Shown: in pieces, positions 11,468 through 46,474 of the stretch
Layout: every line of letters starts with the position of its first letter
Numbering within the stretch: the first letter of the stretch is position 1
Source: Candidatus Nealsonbacteria bacterium
GTDB lineage: Bacteria; Patescibacteriota; Minisyncoccia; Minisyncoccales; RBG-13-42-11
Direction of reading: 5' to 3'
Length of the DNA: 64,000 nt
Assembly: GCA_026396115.1 (NCBI GenBank)
Contig: JAPLXL010000005.1
Span: forward strand, 137,316-201,315
Notes under the pieces: model-generated
Seen by the model: the letters and a program-made list of their open reading frames with translations, nothing else
Database searches by the model: none
Told to the model about the DNA's origin: nothing
Made by a program: the position numbers and the translations under genes

Positions 11468-11887
11468 ATGGCAAAAAGAGTAAAAGCAATCGTAAAACTT
11501 CAAATTAAAGCTGGTCAGGCAACGCCTGCTCCGCCGGTTGGCCCGGCTTTGGCTCAGTACGTGAATATATCCGAATTTTGCCAAAGATTTAATGACGCCA
11601 CAAAAAATAATCAGGGCTTTACAGTCCCGGTTGAAATTAAGGTCTATGAAGATAGAACTTATGATTTTGTATTAAAACAGCCGCCGGCTTCTGAATTATT
11701 GAAAAAAGCAGCCGGTATTGAAAAGGGTTCGGGAGAGCCGAATAAAACAAAGGTGGCCAAAATAACCAAAGCCCAACTCAGAGAAATAGCCAAGACCAAA
11801 ATGCCCGATTTAAATGCAACTGACCTTGAAAGTGCAATGAAAATTATTGAAGGCACCGCTCGCAATATGGGAATAACTATTGAGTAA
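11468..11887 (+). CDS. rplK: 50S ribosomal protein L11
   Basis: [30 protein letters not shown]... N-terminus typical of L11. Confidence 0.9.
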
Positions 11888-11889
11888 TT

Positions 11890-12435
11890 ATGCCAAGGAT
11901 ATCAAAAGAAGAATACTATTTAAATATTGCCAAAGAAGTTGCCGAGAGGTCAACCTGTTTTAGAAATAAAGGCGGAGCAATTATTGTTAGGGGAGATCAA
12001 ATTGTGGCTACAGGTTTTATCGGCGCACCCCGAAAAACAAAAGATTGTTTTGAAAGGGGAGAATGCTTAAGAGACAAATTAAAAATTCCCCACGGCAGGA
12101 ATTATGAAATCTGTCGCTCGGTGCACGCGGAGCAAAATTGCATAATCAACGCAGCAAGAGCAGGAGTTACTTTATTTGGTGGAGACATTTATATTTACTG
12201 TAAAAATCCAAAAGACAACATAAAAAGAGATAGTTTTCCTTGTTTTATTTGTAAAAAAATGATTATTAATTCTGGCTTAAATAGAGTAATTTGCTCAACT
12301 AAAACCGGTGAGATAAAAATATTTCAAGTAGAAGATTGGGTTAAAGAGTGGCAGGAAAAAGACATTTTGGATGATAAATTTCAATTCGGAAAAGATTTAA
12401 ATTTGAAAGAAAATTTTAAAGATGATTTGGGATAA
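11890..12435 (+). CDS. dCMP deaminase (ComEB/CDA family zinc deaminase)
   Basis: HAEQNCIINAA and PCFICKKMI zinc-ligand motifs; occupies the position where rplA is normally found. Confidence 0.75.
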   Translation: MPRISKEEYYLNIAKEVAERSTCFRNKGGAIIVRGDQIVATGFIGAPRKTKDCFERGECLRDKLKIPHGRNYEICRSVHAEQNCIINAARAGVTLFGGDIYIYCKNPKDNIKRDSFPCFICKKMIINSGLNRVICSTKTGEIKIFQVEDWVKEWQEKDILDDKFQFGKDLNLKENFKDDLG

Positions 12436-12488
12436 AAAATTCAAAAATAAAATAGTTCTTTAAATTTAAGAAGAAGGAGGGAAAAAAG

Positions 12489-13067
12489 ATGAAAAAAGTG
12501 AAAAAGCGAGGATGGATTGAAGTTGTTACTGGTCCGATGTTTTCGGGCAAGAGCGAGGAGCTGATCCGCCGCTTGGTACGGGCCCAGATAGCCCGTCAGA
12601 AGGTTCAGGTCTTCAAACATTCAGCCGATGATCGTTATTCGCCTGACGAATTAGTAGTCCACCCCGGGGTTATTCGTCATGAGGCAATAGCGGTCCCAAA
12701 TGCAAGAACCTTGTTAGAGTTGGCTGATCCTGACACCGATGTCGTGGCTATCGATGAGGCTCAGTTTTTTGGCGGTGATCTTCCTGAAGTCTGTAACGAA
12801 CTGGCCGATAGAGGTATCCGGGTGATCGCAGCCGGGCTAGACATGGACTTTCGCGGTGAGCCCTTTGGGCAAATGCCAATTATTTTAGCCATAGCCGAAA
12901 AGGCGGATAAACTTTCGGCTATTTGTGTAAAATGCGGAGAACCGGCTACCCGTAGTCAACGCCTGATTAATGATCATCCGGCTTCTTATGATGACCCGAT
13001 TATTGTTGTAGGAGCTAAAGAAATGTACGAAGCCCGTTGTCGTCATTGTTATAAAGTGAAAAAATAA
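12489..13067 (+). CDS. tdk: thymidine kinase; markedly GC-rich relative to its neighbours, with its own AAGGAGG RBS
   Basis: P-loop [14 protein letters not shown] and a C-terminal zinc ribbon (CVKCG...CRHC); the codon usage and GC differ visibly from the flanking genes. Confidence 0.85.
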
Positions 13068-13073
13068 AAAAAA

Positions 13074-13107
13074 TGGCCAACCTTGTATGGTTGGCCAATT
13101 TTTTTTT
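13074..13107 (+). terminator. intrinsic terminator after tdk
   Basis: tggccaacc-ttgtat-ggttggcca hairpin followed by a T9 run. Confidence 0.6.
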
Positions 13108-13125
13108 ATATGGTATTATATTTTA

Positions 13126-13842
13126 ATGAGAAAGAATCCTTATCCAGGAAAACTTATTGTTTTGGAAGGATTGGACGGTTCTGGTAAATCTACCCAAACG
13201 AATTTATTAATTTCTCATTTAAAAAAGGAGGGATATAAAACTGCGATAATAGATTTTCCCCAATATGGAACAAAATCGGCTGGTCTTATAGAAGAATATT
13301 TAAATGGAAAATATGGTTCGGCATTGGAGGTGGGACCTTATCGGGCTTCTATCTTTTATGCCTGCGATCGCTACGATGCTTCTTTTAAAATAAGAAAATG
13401 GTTAAAAGAAGGAAGAATAGTTATTTCTGATAGATATGTTGCTTCAAATATTGGCCATCAAGGGGGAAAAATTAAAAATAAAGAAGAAAGAAAAACATTT
13501 TTGAAATGGTTATATAATCTTGAATATAATATTTTTGGCATTCCAAAACCTGATATTACTTTTCTTTTAAAAACTTCTCCCAAATTAGCTCGAGAAATGG
13601 CGCCAAAAATAACAGACAAAAAGAAAAAGAAAAAAAGAATTGCCTATTTAGGAAGTAAAACAAGAGATATCCATGAAAGTGATTTAAATCATTTAACCAA
13701 AGCCCTTAATTCTTATTTAGAAACAGCCAAAGAATTTCCAAAAGAATTTAAAATGATAGAATGCATGAAAAATAACAAATTCATACCTCCGGAAATAATT
13801 CATCAAGAAATTATTAAAATTGTAAACAGTAAATTAAGATAA
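13126..13842 (+). CDS. tmk: thymidylate (dTMP) kinase
   Basis: LIVLEGLDGSGKSTQTNLL P-loop and DRY motif (ISDRY); the start was moved to the internal Met to clear the tdk terminator. Confidence 0.8.
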   Translation: MRKNPYPGKLIVLEGLDGSGKSTQTNLLISHLKKEGYKTAIIDFPQYGTKSAGLIEEYLNGKYGSALEVGPYRASIFYACDRYDASFKIRKWLKEGRIVISDRYVASNIGHQGGKIKNKEERKTFLKWLYNLEYNIFGIPKPDITFLLKTSPKLAREMAPKITDKKKKKKRIAYLGSKTRDIHESDLNHLTKALNSYLETAKEFPKEFKMIECMKNNKFIPPEIIHQEIIKIVNSKLR

Positions 13843-13847
13843 ATAAA

Positions 13848-14501
13848 ATGGCAGAGATTTTAAAAAACGCAGGCAGTCATCGGATTTTGGCGATAATGGC
13901 GGGAATTGATGGTAAAAATTCTTTGCAATTGATTGAAGTAGCCGGGCGGACGGCTTATCAGAGCAGAGATAAGATTACTGACGAGTCAGCAGTCAGATTT
14001 GTAAAAATGCTTAGAGATAGGGGTCATGAAAGCGTTCTTGAACACTCTTGTATGACAGTGGAGTTTAACGATGTTTGCCGGGGTTTTACTCACGAGCTGG
14101 TTCGCCACAGAATTGCGGCTTTTACCCAGGAATCAACCCGCTATGTTGATGAAAGTAATTTCAGGGTAGTTGTTCCGCCGGACAAAGACCCCGATGAAAA
14201 AATAGTAGAATTGGATTTTCCAGATGGTACGAAAATAAAAATTTCCTTTCGAGAATGGATGGAATTAAACGAACAGATGTATCAAGGATTAAGAAAAGCA
14301 AATTGGGTTGCTCAAGATGCTAGACAGGTTCTGCCCATTGGTATTAAATCGCAAATTGTAATGACAGCCAATTTTCGGGAGTGGCGGCACGTTTTTAAAC
14401 TAAGAACCACCCCCAATGCTCACTGGGAAATTCGTCGGGTGATGACAAATCTTTTGAACGATGTTAAACAGCGAATACCGGTGATATTTGATGATCTTTA
14501 A
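13848..14501 (+). CDS. thyX: flavin-dependent thymidylate synthase ThyX
   Basis: ThyX signature RHRIAAFTQESTRY (RHRxxxxxxxSxRY). Confidence 0.8.
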   Translation: MAEILKNAGSHRILAIMAGIDGKNSLQLIEVAGRTAYQSRDKITDESAVRFVKMLRDRGHESVLEHSCMTVEFNDVCRGFTHELVRHRIAAFTQESTRYVDESNFRVVVPPDKDPDEKIVELDFPDGTKIKISFREWMELNEQMYQGLRKANWVAQDARQVLPIGIKSQIVMTANFREWRHVFKLRTTPNAHWEIRRVMTNLLNDVKQRIPVIFDDL

Positions 14502-14516
14502 ACAGAAATCAAAAAA

Positions 14517-15842
14517 ATGAAACTTTCTAAAACCGATCTTAAAATTTACGTTTTAATCAAAAAAGAAATTCAGCGCCAAAAAGATGGCTTGGTTTTGATT
14601 CCTTCGGAAAATTACGCCAGCCCGGCCGTACTCTCTAGCATGGGTACGCCTTTAAGCAATAAGTATTCCGAAGGTTATCCAAAAAAGCGATATTACGGCG
14701 GCAATGAATTTATTGACCAAATTGAACAAATTGCTATTGACCGGGCAAAAAAATTATTTAAAGCAGAACATGCCAACGTTCAACCGCATTCCGGTTCTCA
14801 GGCAAATGCCGCAGTCTATCTGGGTTTATTAAATTACCGCGATAAAATTTTGGGAATTGATTTGTCAGCCGGCGGACATTTGACTCACGGCTCTCCGGTT
14901 AATTTTTCGGGTAAATTATATAAATTTGCTTATTATGGAGTTAATCCAAAAACAGAAAGGGTTGACTTGAAAGAAGTAGAAAAAATCGCCCTCAAGTTTA
15001 AGCCAAAGCTAATTATTATCAGCACTACTTCTTATTCAAGGACCCTTAATTTTAAGGCCTTCCGAAAAATTGCCGATAAAGTTGGAGCTTACTTGATGGC
15101 AGACATTGCCCATATTGCCGGTTTGGTGGTAACCGGTCTTCATCCTCACCCTTTTCCTTATTGCGATGTGGTTACCACCACCACTCACAAAACCTTAAGA
15201 GGCCCTCGTGGCGGATTAATATTGTCTAAAATCAAAGATAGATTGGATGCAAAAGGAAAACTCAATTTAGCTCAAAAAATTGATAAAGCTGTTTTTCCGG
15301 GGACGCAGGGAGGACCCTTAGATCATGTTATTGCTGCCAAAGCCGTTTGCTTTTTGGAAGCAATGAAACCTACTTTCAAAAAATATCAAAAGCAGATACT
15401 TATTAACGCCAAAGCTATGGCTGATGAATTCATAAAACAGGGGATAAGAGTGGTTAGCTGTGGCACAGACAACCATTTAATGGTCATCGACGTTTCTCCT
15501 TTTGGAGACAGTTCTAAAAGAATCCAGGACGAATTGGATAAAGTTGGAATTTATGTTAATCGCAACTCCATTCCGTTTGATAAAAGACCGCCCTATAATC
15601 CTTCGGGCATCAGATTGGGATCACCGGCCATTACCAGCCGGGGATTAAAAGAAAAAGAGTGCCGATATATTGTGCGACTGATTGTCAGATTAATAAAAAA
15701 TATTAACAACCAAGAAATTAAAAACCGAGCCCCACGTCAGTGGAGCGAAGGTGGAAAAGAGAACGAAGTTCTCTTTGACATAAAAAAAGAAGTTAGCAGA
15801 ATTACAAAAAAATTCCCCATCTATGCGGATTTTCAATGGTAA
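14517..15842 (+). CDS. glyA: serine hydroxymethyltransferase
   Basis: PLP-binding region TTTTHKTLRGPRGG and overall SHMT architecture. Confidence 0.9.
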   Translation: MKLSKTDLKIYVLIKKEIQRQKDGLVLIPSENYASPAVLSSMGTPLSNKYSEGYPKKRYYGGNEFIDQIEQIAIDRAKKLFKAEHANVQPHSGSQANAAVYLGLLNYRDKILGIDLSAGGHLTHGSPVNFSGKLYKFAYYGVNPKTERVDLKEVEKIALKFKPKLIIISTTSYSRTLNFKAFRKIADKVGAYLMADIAHIAGLVVTGLHPHPFPYCDVVTTTTHKTLRGPRGGLILSKIKDRLDAKGKLNLAQKIDKAVFPGTQGGPLDHVIAAKAVCFLEAMKPTFKKYQKQILINAKAMADEFIKQGIRVVSCGTDNHLMVIDVSPFGDSSKRIQDELDKVGIYVNRNSIPFDKRPPYNPSGIRLGSPAITSRGLKEKECRYIVRLIVRLIKNINNQEIKNRAPRQWSEGGKENEVLFDIKKEVSRITKKFPIYADFQW

Positions 15843-16746
15843 AAAAGAAGCTGAAAAAATCTTATTGGATTTAGGAAAAAGAATATCTAAAGAAAAACTT
15901 AAGCCTAAATTAGCCGTAATCCTGGTTGGCGAGGATAAAGCATCGAGGCTCTACATAAAATTAAAAAGAAAAGCGGCCAAAAAAATTAGTATAAAATTAG
16001 TTCTTTATAAGTTCAAAGAAGCCACAGTAGAAGAAAAAATTATTCAAAAAATAAAAACTTTAAACAATAATTCTTCAATTCATGGAATTATTGTTCAATT
16101 ACCTCTTCCTAAAAAATTCAACCAGAATAAAATTGTCGGGGCGGTAAATCCCAAAAAAGACGTTGACGGTTTTCAAAAAAACGGTTGGTTTCTGCCGGTA
16201 TTGCCTTCGGCAATTTTATTTACTATTAAAAAGGCAATGAAAACATCTTTCAAAAAAAAGAAGGTCGTGGCACTGGTAAATTCAAAGATTTTCGGGCAAA
16301 GGCTTAAATCTTTTTTTAAAAAAGAGGGAATAGAATTAGATTATATTTTAAGGAAAAAGCATTCTTTTACCGAGCTTCCGAGGGAAGCGAGCTCGAAGAA
16401 CATTCATTCTTCTCGACCCTTCGCTGCGACTCGGGTAGATGAAGAAGAAGATTTTATCTCTTCGACTTTTGAAAATAAAAATAAATTGAAAAGGGCAGAT
16501 ATTATTATTACAGTTTTGGGTTCCCCCAATGCAATTTGGGGTGATATGATAAAGAAGAAGGCAATTTTAATTGACGCCGGCATTAGTAAAATTGCAGCAA
16601 AAAAAGTGGTTGGCGACGTAAATAGAGAAAGCGTAAAAGAAAAAGCAGCTTTCTTAACTCCGGTACCAGGCGGCATCGGCCCCTTAACGGTCGCTTTATT
16701 ATTAAAAAACGTTTATTATGCGGCAAAATATAGCCAAGTTAATTGA
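15823..16746 (+). CDS. folD: bifunctional methylene-THF dehydrogenase/cyclohydrolase FolD, with an in-frame composite mini-element insertion
   Basis: N-terminal KLKPKLAVILVGEDKASRLYIKLKRKAAKK and C-terminal TPVPGGIGPLTVALLLKN; the inserted ~33-aa segment FTELPREASSKNIHSSRPFAATRVDEEEDFISS is a repeat copy. Confidence 0.8.
   Translation: MRIFNGKKEAEKILLDLGKRISKEKLKPKLAVILVGEDKASRLYIKLKRKAAKKISIKLVLYKFKEATVEEKIIQKIKTLNNNSSIHGIIVQLPLPKKFNQNKIVGAVNPKKDVDGFQKNGWFLPVLPSAILFTIKKAMKTSFKKKKVVALVNSKIFGQRLKSFFKKEGIELDYILRKKHSFTELPREASSKNIHSSRPFAATRVDEEEDFISSTFENKNKLKRADIIITVLGSPNAIWGDMIKKKAILIDAGISKIAAKKVVGDVNRESVKEKAAFLTPVPGGIGPLTVALLLKNVYYAAKYSQVN
16368..16466. repeat. composite mini-element (about 2 units), in-frame in folD
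   Basis: ttaccgagcttccgagggaagcgagctcgaagaacattcattcttctcgacccttcgctgcgactcgggtagatgaagaagaagattttatctcttcg. Confidence 0.7.
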
Positions 16747-44616: not shown

Positions 44617-45822
44617 ATGAAAAGGAAGATTGATATGCGATTTGGTGGAGGATACAATACAATTTTGTATTCTGCCAGGAGAAACTGTTTCTTTGCCTAT
44701 GAGCAGGAAGCAGTGGAAATTCATTCTAAATACGGGGGGAGGCAGTATTACTCCTCTCGAACTGGGTTGAGTGGTGCCGGTTTTCTCGAAGTTGATCCGA
44801 TCAACAATGATTTGATCCAGTTCGGGTATTACCGGACAGATGCGATGAGCGAACAGCGAATAGAGACAGTTCATACTGTCAATGGTTGTCCAGTATTTGG
44901 TTATGCCCCGATTATCTCGCATGGGGGAATTGACCAAAACGCACCGTTTGTACTCGCGGACGGTAGGAAAGTGGCGTTTGTCCATGCCTGCGATGTTCGT
45001 GATACCATTCTTAAATGGGAAGGGATTAAGGGCAAGGAAATCGAGTTGAACTATTATGATCACTACGGTCATAAAGAGAAACTCACTTTCCAGTTTTACA
45101 ATCCTGACCATTTCAGAGAAGTGAGGGCAAGCCGTTTCGTAGACTTACGAGGTCCTCGCCTAGAGGCAAAGGCAGTCCAACTCGAAGAGTTGGAAAGCGT
45201 CTTTGCTCGTCAGCTTTCCATTTCAAAAGAGATGGAAAGCGAGCGCTGGTTTCACATCAATGCCGATGGAATATTCGACATGATGTGGGAAGAGGACCCT
45301 CGTCAAATCGTCGGCGAAATCGTACCAGGATGGTACGGCGAAGGCAATGGTCTCTACTGGCGACGTGGTCGCAACGGCGTGAAAGTTTTCATGGAGATTA
45401 AAAGGTCTTCCTTGAATGGCGGGAAATATGTCGTTAATGGCAAAACTTCCGAGTTTATCGACTACGAGCAGAACTTTTCCATCTTGGAATGGTTCAGCAA
45501 GGACATTGATGCGTGGAAGAAACACTTCGTCGCGCAAGTGACGAAGAAAACACGCATGGACTACGTATATGCCTGCCAGTGTGTGGGCATAAATACTTAT
45601 GAGTTGATGAAACAACATCCGGATGTCCGAGTCTGTCTCCAAGATTCACTTGATGTTGGCAACTGTCGCCCGGCATCAGAGGAATTCGTCGAGCAATATA
45701 AAATCAAGCTCGATGAGGACGGATACACTGCCATAAAGACATTGCTAGAAAATCCGAACATCGACGAGATGTTGCGGAATTTCAACTTTCAGAAGACAAT
45801 CCACTACAAACTAGTGGATTAA
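44617..45822 (+). CDS. orphan hypothetical protein, compositionally foreign (clearly GC-richer than its surroundings), preceded by a GC hairpin and an AAGGAGG RBS
   Basis: 401-aa ORF with no motif I recognise; GC and codon usage differ from flanking housekeeping genes. Confidence 0.45.
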   Translation: MKRKIDMRFGGGYNTILYSARRNCFFAYEQEAVEIHSKYGGRQYYSSRTGLSGAGFLEVDPINNDLIQFGYYRTDAMSEQRIETVHTVNGCPVFGYAPIISHGGIDQNAPFVLADGRKVAFVHACDVRDTILKWEGIKGKEIELNYYDHYGHKEKLTFQFYNPDHFREVRASRFVDLRGPRLEAKAVQLEELESVFARQLSISKEMESERWFHINADGIFDMMWEEDPRQIVGEIVPGWYGEGNGLYWRRGRNGVKVFMEIKRSSLNGGKYVVNGKTSEFIDYEQNFSILEWFSKDIDAWKKHFVAQVTKKTRMDYVYACQCVGINTYELMKQHPDVRVCLQDSLDVGNCRPASEEFVEQYKIKLDEDGYTAIKTLLENPNIDEMLRNFNFQKTIHYKLVD

Positions 45823-46108: not shown

Positions 46109-46474
46109 GTGGAAAAGTTCGGTTTAAAAGCCGAAAAGTGGATAATATCTATTTTGAAAAGCAACGGGTTCTCAGTGATAAAATCGAGTGATATAGAGGA
46201 TCTAATTTTCAAAGTAGATTTCTGGATTCAGCACGATAATTACTGGATTCCAGTTCAGTTCTCGGTGGATAAGGAGGCGATTATTAGTTGGAAGGGGACT
46301 AATTCACTTCGACTGGGAATTGTTCCTATGTGGATAGATGGGAACAAGCTCAGGAGGGCTTTTGAAGATGAGGATGGGATAGAGTTAATTAAGGAGTTCT
46401 GGAATCGTGTAGAACAGATTATAGAAAATTGTTCTATAAAGCGATTTCAAACTCCAAACTGGAGTTGCGCTTAA
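46109..46474 (+). CDS. hypothetical protein carried on a cassette flanked by 42-bp direct repeats (GTG start, AAGGAGG RBS)
   Basis: ORF followed by the terminator-like hairpin ggggaactcaaattgcacacaatgagttcccc, then the second DR. Confidence 0.35.
   Translation: MEKFGLKAEKWIISILKSNGFSVIKSSDIEDLIFKVDFWIQHDNYWIPVQFSVDKEAIISWKGTNSLRLGIVPMWIDGNKLRRAFEDEDGIELIKEFWNRVEQIIENCSIKRFQTPNWSCA

Follow-up and report, generated by a model that had tools for sequence, protein, structure and literature searches.

Does a gene whose base composition departs from that of its neighbors record its own arrival in a genome, or a later event within it? The question is raised by a thymidine kinase (TK) gene, tdk, in Candidatus Nealsonbacteria contig JAPLXL010000005.1 (assembly GCA_026396115.1). 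The whole stretch analyzed, termed here the window, comprises 64,000 nucleotides (positions 137,316 to 201,315 of the contig), and tdk lies within it in a cluster for the synthesis of deoxythymidine monophosphate (dTMP), between the genes for dCMP deaminase and dTMP kinase (tmk). An initial annotation of this DNA regarded tdk as a recently acquired, GC-rich cassette. The analysis reported here favors a different history, with a probability of ~0.75, in which tdk is an old insert that later received an intragenic patch by recombination with a GC-rich allele.

The guanine plus cytosine (GC) content of the window is 36.9%. At 0.480, the GC of tdk is the highest among the 63 open reading frames (ORFs) of the window (mean 0.370, standard deviation 0.034), ~3.2 standard deviations above the mean. 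The gene also ranks first for GC at first codon positions (GC1, 0.622), and GC at third positions (GC3) is 0.430 compared to an average of 0.332 with a standard deviation of 0.056 for the 63 ORFs. The excess of tdk over its flanks was +0.112, compared with +0.025 ± 0.029 in 73 other metagenome tdk loci, and was the second largest value in that set. The distinct composition noticed in the initial annotation was borne out by these values, but does not extend along the entire gene. Examination of GC and codon statistics, which had been proposed there as a check, gave a divided result: codons 13–120 are atypical with a GC3 of 0.53 (z = 3.3) and a synonymous-codon fit of z = −3.7, a fit as poor as that of only 0.15% of 647 native 108-codon windows, whereas codons 121–192 are native-like (z = −0.2). 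The compositional anomaly is limited to 12524–12848, and the atypical composition and codon usage that characterize horizontally acquired islets were found in this segment but not in 12849–13067. The sequence run that had originally been quoted as evidence of foreign DNA falls within the patch, and the foreign look of tdk is due to the patch alone.

The origin of the patch emerges from comparison with sister contigs, designated by L numbers. Nine other contigs of this lineage (L081, L163, L164, L165/L166, L167, L370, and L371/L372) have tdk in the corresponding slot, as does L082, a Logan assembly. The top protein matches to the TK of the window descend from 95% to 72% identity and are followed by thousands at 60–68%. 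The flanks of L164, L166, and L081 are nearly identical to those of the window (dCMP deaminase 93–96%, ribosomal protein L11 95–98%, Tmk 85–87%). The TKs of L163–L167 and L371/L372 are only 66–72% identical to that of the window, and that of L081 is 95% identical. The alleles in the slot mostly have a GC of 0.40–0.43, with that of L163 at 0.52.

In codon alignments, the window matched the L163 allele (type A) at 87–96% of nucleotides across 12534–12758, and the L164 or L166 alleles (type B) at 89–98% across most of 12849–13067. Remaining comparisons between the window and these alleles gave 38–76% nucleotide identity, with 38–71% for the patch versus L164 and L166. Across the patch region the B alleles have a GC of 0.31–0.40 and are only ~52% identical to the window in protein sequence. 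A two-breakpoint maximum-chi-square test selected 12524–12764 with chi-square values of 105–117; none of 1000 permutations reached the observed value, the permutation maximum being 21–25, and the test chose the same segment when the query was L081, an independent JGI contig. Informative sites are consecutively of the L163 type at 61 positions in 12621–12740 and of the L166 type at 42 positions in 12869–12965, with short alternating tracts in between. In neighbor-joining (NJ) trees of residues 13–92, the window grouped with the L163 protein (P0002) with 100% bootstrap support, apart from a B clade (P0003/6/5/8/4, 85%), and in trees of residues 121–190 the window fell inside the B clade with 100% support. 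The outer breakpoints lie at the sites that encode the P-loop and AIDEAQFF motifs, where the divergent alleles still share sequence. By these comparisons, the tdk of the window is a mosaic in which an A-type patch of ~240–325 bp, common to a different allele, is embedded in a resident B-type allele, and the GC richness ascribed earlier to the cassette as a whole belongs instead to that internal patch. The mosaic penicillin-binding-protein genes of Streptococcus pneumoniae likewise arose by recombination between divergent alleles. As in mosaic genes, blocks of ~90–98% identity alternate here with blocks of ~40–70% between nearly identical flanks, and the outer crossovers fall in conserved motifs. 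Unlike in the pneumococcal genes, there is no known selective agent, and base composition, too, sets the imported block apart, a difference that first drew attention to the gene.

A mosaic might also be produced during assembly if strains bearing A and B alleles occurred together and their reads were merged into a chimeric contig. The comparison contigs are short metagenome assemblies, the A and B alleles derive from similar run series (SRR22388187 and SRR22388302), and conserved motifs such as those at the junctions are where assemblers switch strains. However, the same mosaic with the same breakpoints was recovered in the independent JGI assembly L081, which differs from the window at 0–7% of nucleotides per 45-nt bin along tdk, and the mosaic is present also in the Logan assembly L082. 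Because of this recurrence, an assembly chimera is scarcely credible.

If the patch accounts for the composition, the age of the insert must be judged on other grounds. An import of the entire tdk cassette in a single recent event from a GC-rich donor, with composition not yet ameliorated, would accord with the position of tdk at the top of the GC ranking and its excess over the flanks, with the lack of tdk at the site in 17 related species, and with the L163 gene, which is GC-rich along its whole length in the same slot. However, the 3′ third of the gene and the spacer ahead of it are native-like and share 89–98% identity with low-GC alleles from sister genomes, and the trees of the two segments are incongruent. 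Moreover, the more distant L370, whose L11 is 77% identical in amino acid sequence to that of the window, also bears tdk in the slot. The deaminase gene has been lost in L370, but 22 nt of its 3′ end are retained ahead of tdk together with the same spacer. Thus, the deaminase–tdk junction either predates the split of L370 or moved together with the flank. A recent import of the whole unit is unlikely on this evidence. The occupation of the slot in nine other contigs, most with alleles of GC 0.40–0.43 and including L370, contradicts the view of tdk as a recently acquired GC-rich cassette, and the insert as a whole is, as judged from these alleles and junctions, not recent.

The borders of the insert were defined by comparison with relatives that lack tdk. 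A scan anchored on ThyX, with one genome per species, yielded 21 loci from metagenome-assembled genomes of related members of the candidate phyla radiation (CPR)/Patescibacteria, in which ThyX is 62–85% identical to that of the window and which are labeled Gribaldobacteria, Parcubacteria group, or with generic names. Searches by tblastn with the window proteins revealed that the order gyrB-secE-nusG-L11-(variable)-thyX-...-gatB is conserved in relatives. No tdk was detected by tblastn in the 21 loci, of which 17 contain the whole L11–thyX interval; the presence or absence of tdk in relatives, suggested at the outset as a further check, was answered in this way by its lack from the site in 17 species. 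L004 is the sole relative with the same deaminase type (73% identical) and the same tmk type (73%), and in it the stop codon of the deaminase gene overlaps the start codon of tmk (ATGAATAA). The N-terminal sequence MRKNPYPGK in the window aligns with MNKNSHPGK in L004, from which 13126 is taken as the true tmk start. A further ATG, at 13087, sits within a hairpin and is not the tmk start: the earlier observation that a terminator overlaps a long form of tmk was correct with regard to this ATG, but not with regard to the start of the gene as indicated by homology. From the alignment of the junctions, the insert corresponds to 12436–13125, ~690 bp placed exactly between the deaminase and tmk genes. 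Absence from the same site in relatives with conserved flanks, a property of horizontally acquired islets, was thus found, and the original proposal that tdk was inserted in a dCMP deaminase-tmk-thyX cluster is upheld by the tdk-less slot in the 17 species and by the overlap in L004. No mobility genes were detected at the borders, where the neighbors are housekeeping genes, and no convincing target-site duplications or flanking direct repeats were found at the insert. An 11-nt repeat, AAAGTGAAAAA, was considered as a flanking repeat and rejected: both copies lie within the ends of the tdk coding sequence and probably reflect chance in A-rich DNA.

The same comparisons bear on the proposal that tdk is native and vertically inherited, that its GC content reflects amino acid content and the codon choice of a well-expressed gene, and that the relatives have lost it. 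The GC of TK genes exceeds that of their flanks by 2.5 points on average, tdk has the highest GC1 in the window and a strong ribosome-binding site, and its product is about equidistant from the TKs of Anaerolineae/Chloroflexota and of Bacillota. However, alleles with ~95% identical flanks have a GC of 0.31–0.40 in the patch region, and the ~52% protein identity there is not the product of selection on codon usage. The proposal also requires loss in 17 of 17 related species together with precise restoration of the overlapping deaminase/tmk junction in L004. It is accordingly regarded as highly improbable, and a horizontal origin of the original insert is the more plausible reading of these junctions.

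The source of the insert was sought among the nearest TKs outside the lineage, which occur in two contexts. The first comprises contigs with the order L21-L27-L31-TK-GYD-RecJ, a GC of ~0.53, and genes that are untypical of CPR, for example those for GNAT proteins and CNNM transporters. The second is the Bacillota-type arrangement rho-rpmE-tdk-DUF1385-prmC-prfA. Named matches were to Anaerolineae, Chloroflexota, Thermoanaerobacterium, and Bacillota, and the flanks exceed a GC of 0.52 in 45 of 73 homologous tdk loci. The TKs of the A type, the B type, and the further lineage in contig L159 are 47–58% identical to one another in the N-terminal segment versus 62–72% identical to non-CPR TKs, although the deep nodes are weak. 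These three types of allele do not cluster with one another, and that each is closer to outside TKs than to the other two fits several independent imports. A phage origin of tdk was considered and rejected, as the best TK match on a viral contig reached 55% identity, below the 62–72% of cellular matches.

The gene itself is an unbroken ORF of 192 codons on the forward strand. Its product matched the Pfam TK family (PF00265) with an E value of 2.9e-53 and 180.7 bits (cut-off 20.6) over profile positions 1–176 of 176, and the NCBIfam thymidine kinase equivalog NF003296 with 273.3 bits (cut-off 183). The closest solved structure is chain 1xx6_A, the TK of Clostridium acetobutylicum (E 4.8e-73, full-length); the alignment is ungapped across the DEAQFF motif and the zinc cysteines except for one residue in a variable loop. 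In an alignment of 11 sequences, the P-loop GPMFSGKS (residues 15–22) has invariant G15, G20, and K21, the DEAQFF motif has invariant D89, E90, Q92, F93, and F94, and the structural-zinc cysteines C146, C149, C184, and C187 are also invariant. The product agrees with type II TKs in its length and in possessing the P-loop, the DEAQFF motif, and the four zinc cysteines, and it is 60–72% identical to TKs of the Chloroflexota and Bacillota types. Thus, tdk is predicted to encode a functional, ATP-dependent thymidine kinase. In Chloroflexota and Bacillota, tdk adjoins rpmE in a conserved housekeeping context; here instead it stands in the dCMP deaminase-tmk-thyX cluster with its own Shine-Dalgarno (SD) sequence and terminator. 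Its neighbors encode dCMP deaminase, dTMP kinase, ThyX, serine hydroxymethyltransferase (SHMT), FolD, and a DeoC-like aldolase, and gyrB, secE, nusG, and rplK lie 5′ of the deaminase gene. No second tdk copy that might have served as a conversion donor is present within the 64-kb window. In addition, no specific account of thymidine kinase in CPR, Patescibacteria, or Saccharibacteria was found in the literature searched.

The 53-nt spacer ahead of tdk carries an SD sequence, AAGGAGG, 8 nt 5′ of the ATG codon, with a duplex energy of −12.7 kcal/mol that ranks 6th among 60 genes. An SD core of at least 6 nt was found in 8 of 60 window genes including tdk, a count that is approximate as start codons were taken from the longest ORFs. 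The ribosome-binding site, held initially to be strong and unlike those of native genes, is indeed strong and of a rare kind, but seven other window genes also possess a strong SD sequence. The spacer is 90–95% identical in L164, and its motifs recur 5′ of tdk in L081, L167, L370, and L371. A consensus scan of the spacer gave no promoter match with 16–18-nt spacing.

An intrinsic-terminator-like hairpin begins 7 nt past the tdk stop codon. It has a 9-bp stem (13074–13097) with six G-C pairs and a 6-nt loop, and is followed by nine T residues at 13099–13107; the G+C-rich hairpin and ensuing U-tract 3′ of a stop codon are the features of a Rho-independent terminator. The centroid energy of the hairpin is −17.6 kcal/mol, and in the minimum-energy fold, at −20.9 kcal/mol, the A8 and T-run on either side are paired as well (z = −4.5 versus shuffled sequences). 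The core motif occurs once in 64 kb with zero copies expected. The stem GGCCAACC/GGTTGGCC recurs after tdk in L081, L082, L163–L167, L371, and L372. Two copies are present in L159, one after tdk and the second after a deoxynucleoside kinase gene. The stem is absent from ~300 kb of tdk-less relatives and is confined to tdk-bearing loci within ~406 kb of the CPR family. The core is invariant in eight aligned copies with loops of ~4 to 11 nt, and the T-run and a TATGnTATTAT sequence are conserved after every copy. In L370, another stem, GGAGGTAG/CTACCTCC, is found at the same position after tdk. An Rfam search of 11800–13900 gave only sub-threshold terminator-like matches (best 30.5 bits versus a gathering score of 55) and no known RNA family. 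The identification of tdk as a thymidine kinase gene with its own ribosome-binding site and terminator-like hairpin, as made in the initial annotation, is confirmed by the Pfam and NCBIfam matches, the AAGGAGG motif, and the 9-bp stem with T9.

A promoter-like site overlaps the hairpin. As a −35 element, TTGGCC (13091–13096) lies in the 3′ arm, and TATTAT (13114–13119) ends 6 nt before the tmk ATG. As tmk has no SD sequence, its mRNA may be leaderless. The hairpin module would appear to be a terminator joined to a promoter, and a terminator inserted in a translationally coupled gene pair would need such a restart signal. The hairpin and T-run probably end the secE-nusG-rplK-deaminase-tdk transcript; transcription of tmk-thyX-glyA-folD probably begins anew at the overlapping TTGGCC/TGnTATTAT element and may yield a leaderless mRNA. 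The small number of genes with SD sequences, the lack of one for tmk, and the position of its ATG codon 6 nt past TGnTATTAT suggest that translation in this genome commonly starts on leaderless mRNAs or without an SD sequence.

The hairpin could alternatively mark a mobile cassette in which the SD sequence, ORF, and GGCCAACC...GGTTGGCC hairpin form a unit and the hairpin acts as a recombination site by analogy with integron attC, which would account for the arrival of different kinase genes in one slot. The core is invariant while the loop varies, the hairpin is restricted to tdk-bearing loci, and in L159 it follows both tdk and an inserted deoxynucleoside kinase gene. At 6 of 7 positions, the arms agree with the consensus for the core and inverse core of attC. 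An attC site consists of two pairs of imperfect inverted repeats and is 55 nt or longer. The tdk hairpin, at 22–27 nt, is far shorter and lacks a second repeat pair: a single 8–9-bp inverted repeat is present in one copy in 64 kb. No integrase or transposase was found in the surveyed neighborhood of housekeeping genes, nor were flanking target duplications. The different stem of L370 at the same position is as expected for a terminator maintained for shape, and hairpin motifs of this kind are common in unrelated viral contigs, in which a scan returned >120 unrelated matches that represent generic palindromic hairpins and are uninformative. The unit resembles integron cassettes in possessing a promoterless ORF with its own ribosome-binding site followed by an inverted repeat, and in the two tandem units of L159. 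It differs in the lack of an integrase, in the far shorter repeat, and in the T-run and −10-like box that follow, and it behaves as a terminator–promoter module. Mobility of an attC-like kind is therefore very unlikely.

The slot is variable beyond tdk. In the tdk-less relatives L002–L021, the rplK–thyX interval includes two unrelated dCMP deaminase types and two tmk types that are ~30% identical mutually, as well as genes for dCTP deaminase, dUTPase, a ThyA-like protein, and a dNMP-kinase-like protein. In L017, the interval holds an ORF of 568 amino acids of the radical-SAM/B12-binding type with a GC of 0.53 in a genome of 0.36. Contig L159 (JGI contig Ga0315277_10007803) is a member of the clade by its gyrB (64%), nusG (73%), and tmk (69%), and bears a 2.1-kb island between L11 and tmk with a GC of 0.51–0.54 compared to 0.30–0.37 around it. 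This island carries a different thyX, a tdk 58% identical to that of the window, and the deoxynucleoside kinase gene. In L167, an alternative thyX lies upstream of tdk, and two collinear fragments of that gene (77–80% nucleotide identity) persist at L163:106–220. The gene remnants in L163 and L370 are traces of past rearrangements of the slot, and the L11–thyX interval is a hot spot for the swapping of dTMP-pathway genes. Two further observations concern this region. In L164 (770–927), the tdk hairpin and promoter-like box are followed by non-tmk sequence up to the contig end, which may represent a further variant of the slot. Downstream, SHMT and FolD genes (14517–16746) separate thyX from the DeoC-like gene in the window and L001 only, and in other relatives thyX runs straight into deoC or gatB; the SHMT and FolD genes may be another lineage-specific addition to the dTMP cluster.

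A bolder proposal is that this CPR family uses the interval that follows rplK specifically for the exchange of dTMP-supply genes, and that units composed of an SD sequence, a kinase gene, and the GGCCAACC/GGTTGGCC hairpin-promoter are portable cassettes that are swapped between genomes by recombination at the hairpin-promoter module. It is unlikely at present. If correct, thymidine and deoxynucleoside kinases (A, B, and L159 types) would have been captured repeatedly and independently, and the tdk of the window would be a snapshot of continuing allele turnover, possibly driven by selection on the scavenging of host nucleosides.

The old insert with a later patch is the reading preferred here, and the events it entails can be set out as follows. 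A unit of ~690 bp, comprising the spacer with its SD sequence, tdk, the terminator hairpin, and a promoter-like −10 element, would have entered the CPR lineage and been inserted exactly between the formerly overlapping dCMP deaminase and tmk genes. The resident B allele would then have drifted towards native composition, the insert having been present long enough for a cluster of related genomes to have it in common. Later, 12524–12764, with a finer mosaic to ~12848, would have been exchanged, by homeologous recombination, for sequence of a very divergent, GC-rich A allele that circulates within the same genus; both the direction and the mechanism of this recombination are inferred. Several points weigh against parts of this history. 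The tdk-less status of the relatives pertains to 20-kb loci. The only full A-type allele, that of L163, is on a single 1.2-kb Logan contig, and 12765–12848 fits neither allele cleanly, which implies more than two parents or several events. Between the TKs of Anaerolineae and Thermoanaerobacterium, identity is 60–66%, as it is between either of them and the TK of the window; the family is therefore nearly star-like, and identities do not single out a donor phylum. Support for the deep nodes of the NJ trees is weak, and a donor inside the CPR is possible. Finally, the terminator, promoter, and enzyme activity are all predictions, and the rules of CPR promoters are poorly known.

The features of the locus are compiled in Table 1.

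Table 1. Features of the tdk insert, its flanks, and related slots (window coordinates unless a contig is given).
Feature	Position	Strand	Basis or remarks
dCMP deaminase gene, upstream flank of insert	11890–12435	+	Pfam dCMP_cyt_deam_1, E 4.3e-15
Spacer of insert, 53 nt, with SD AAGGAGG (12474–12480)	12436–12488	+	Sequence; SD duplex energy
tdk, type II (TK1-like) thymidine kinase, 192 amino acids, apparently intact	12489–13067	+	Pfam, NCBIfam, structure match, motifs
GC-rich patch within tdk	12524–12848	+	GC 0.532; core 12524–12764 of A type (L163-like); 12765–12848 finer mosaic
3′ third of tdk (codons 121–192), resident B-type allele	12849–13067	+	GC 0.425, GC3 0.31, codon fit
Intrinsic-terminator-like hairpin TGGCCAACC-TTGTAT-GGTTGGCCA plus T9, with A8 in front	13074–13107	+	Fold, conservation
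Promoter-like site TTGGCC-17 nt-TATTAT, TG at 13111–13112	13091–13119	+	Consensus scan
tmk (dTMP kinase), downstream flank of insert	13126–13842	+	Pfam Thymidylate_kin, 6.8e-29, from residue 13
thyX (flavin-dependent thymidylate synthase), dTMP cluster	13848–14501	+	Pfam Thy1, 4.1e-49; TIGR02170, 136.6 bits
Island region of L159	L159:5161–8234		GC-rich, two hairpin-promoter modules
Deaminase 3′ remnant region	L370:620–650		22 nt of dCMP deaminase end

Two observations were made apart from the tdk slot. An ORF of 401 amino acids at 44617–45822 ranks first in the window for GC3 (0.52) and has the poorest codon fit of 60 genes and an 8-nt SD sequence, with a local GC of 0.43–0.51 amid AT-rich flanks; no match was found in Pfam, PHROGs, or PADLOC. 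The adjacent ORF (46109–46474, 121 amino acids) has a 10-nt SD sequence and is likewise without an assigned family, and the two ORFs may constitute a second foreign islet. In addition, the tblastn matches to gyrB in L014 (2797–7632) and L021 (4384–6447) fall into two or three segments with gaps of 0.2–1.6 kb, possibly due to inteins or other insertions.

Dependence on scavenged nucleosides is assumed for CPR bacteria. The TK is predicted to phosphorylate thymidine and deoxyuridine with ATP to yield dTMP and dUMP and so to feed the adjacent Tmk, and this supply from scavenged nucleosides would run beside the de novo route of deaminase, ThyX, SHMT, and FolD. The patchy gain of metabolic genes by lateral transfer is established in CPR bacteria (Jaffe et al., 2020; PMC7304191). 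As an accessory gene that one small clade possesses and its relatives lack, and with affinities to sequences beyond the clade, tdk follows that pattern. The earlier study did not treat thymidine kinase (the term 'thymid' does not occur in it), whereas the present comparison fixes the site of insertion at single-nucleotide resolution and finds the slot occupied by at least three TK lineages (A, B, and L159-type). The enzyme is ordinary and mosaic alleles are familiar, and knowledge of the enzyme or of gene transfer in general is unchanged. Specific to this locus are the reconstruction at nucleotide level, the assignment of the compositional signal to an intragenic patch, and the recurrent use of one slot. 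The patch carries a caution for the detection of horizontal transfer by composition, in that the atypical signal dates a later intragenic recombination and not the acquisition of the gene. For the organism, the locus shows how a step for salvage of thymidine to dTMP has been added to a de novo dTMP cluster of dCMP deaminase, ThyX, SHMT, FolD, and Tmk, with the insert supplying predicted signals that would keep the split operon expressed. For the group, the recurrence of three unrelated TK lineages and of other dTMP genes in one interval suggests that CPR bacteria exchange and recombine DNA frequently in nature.

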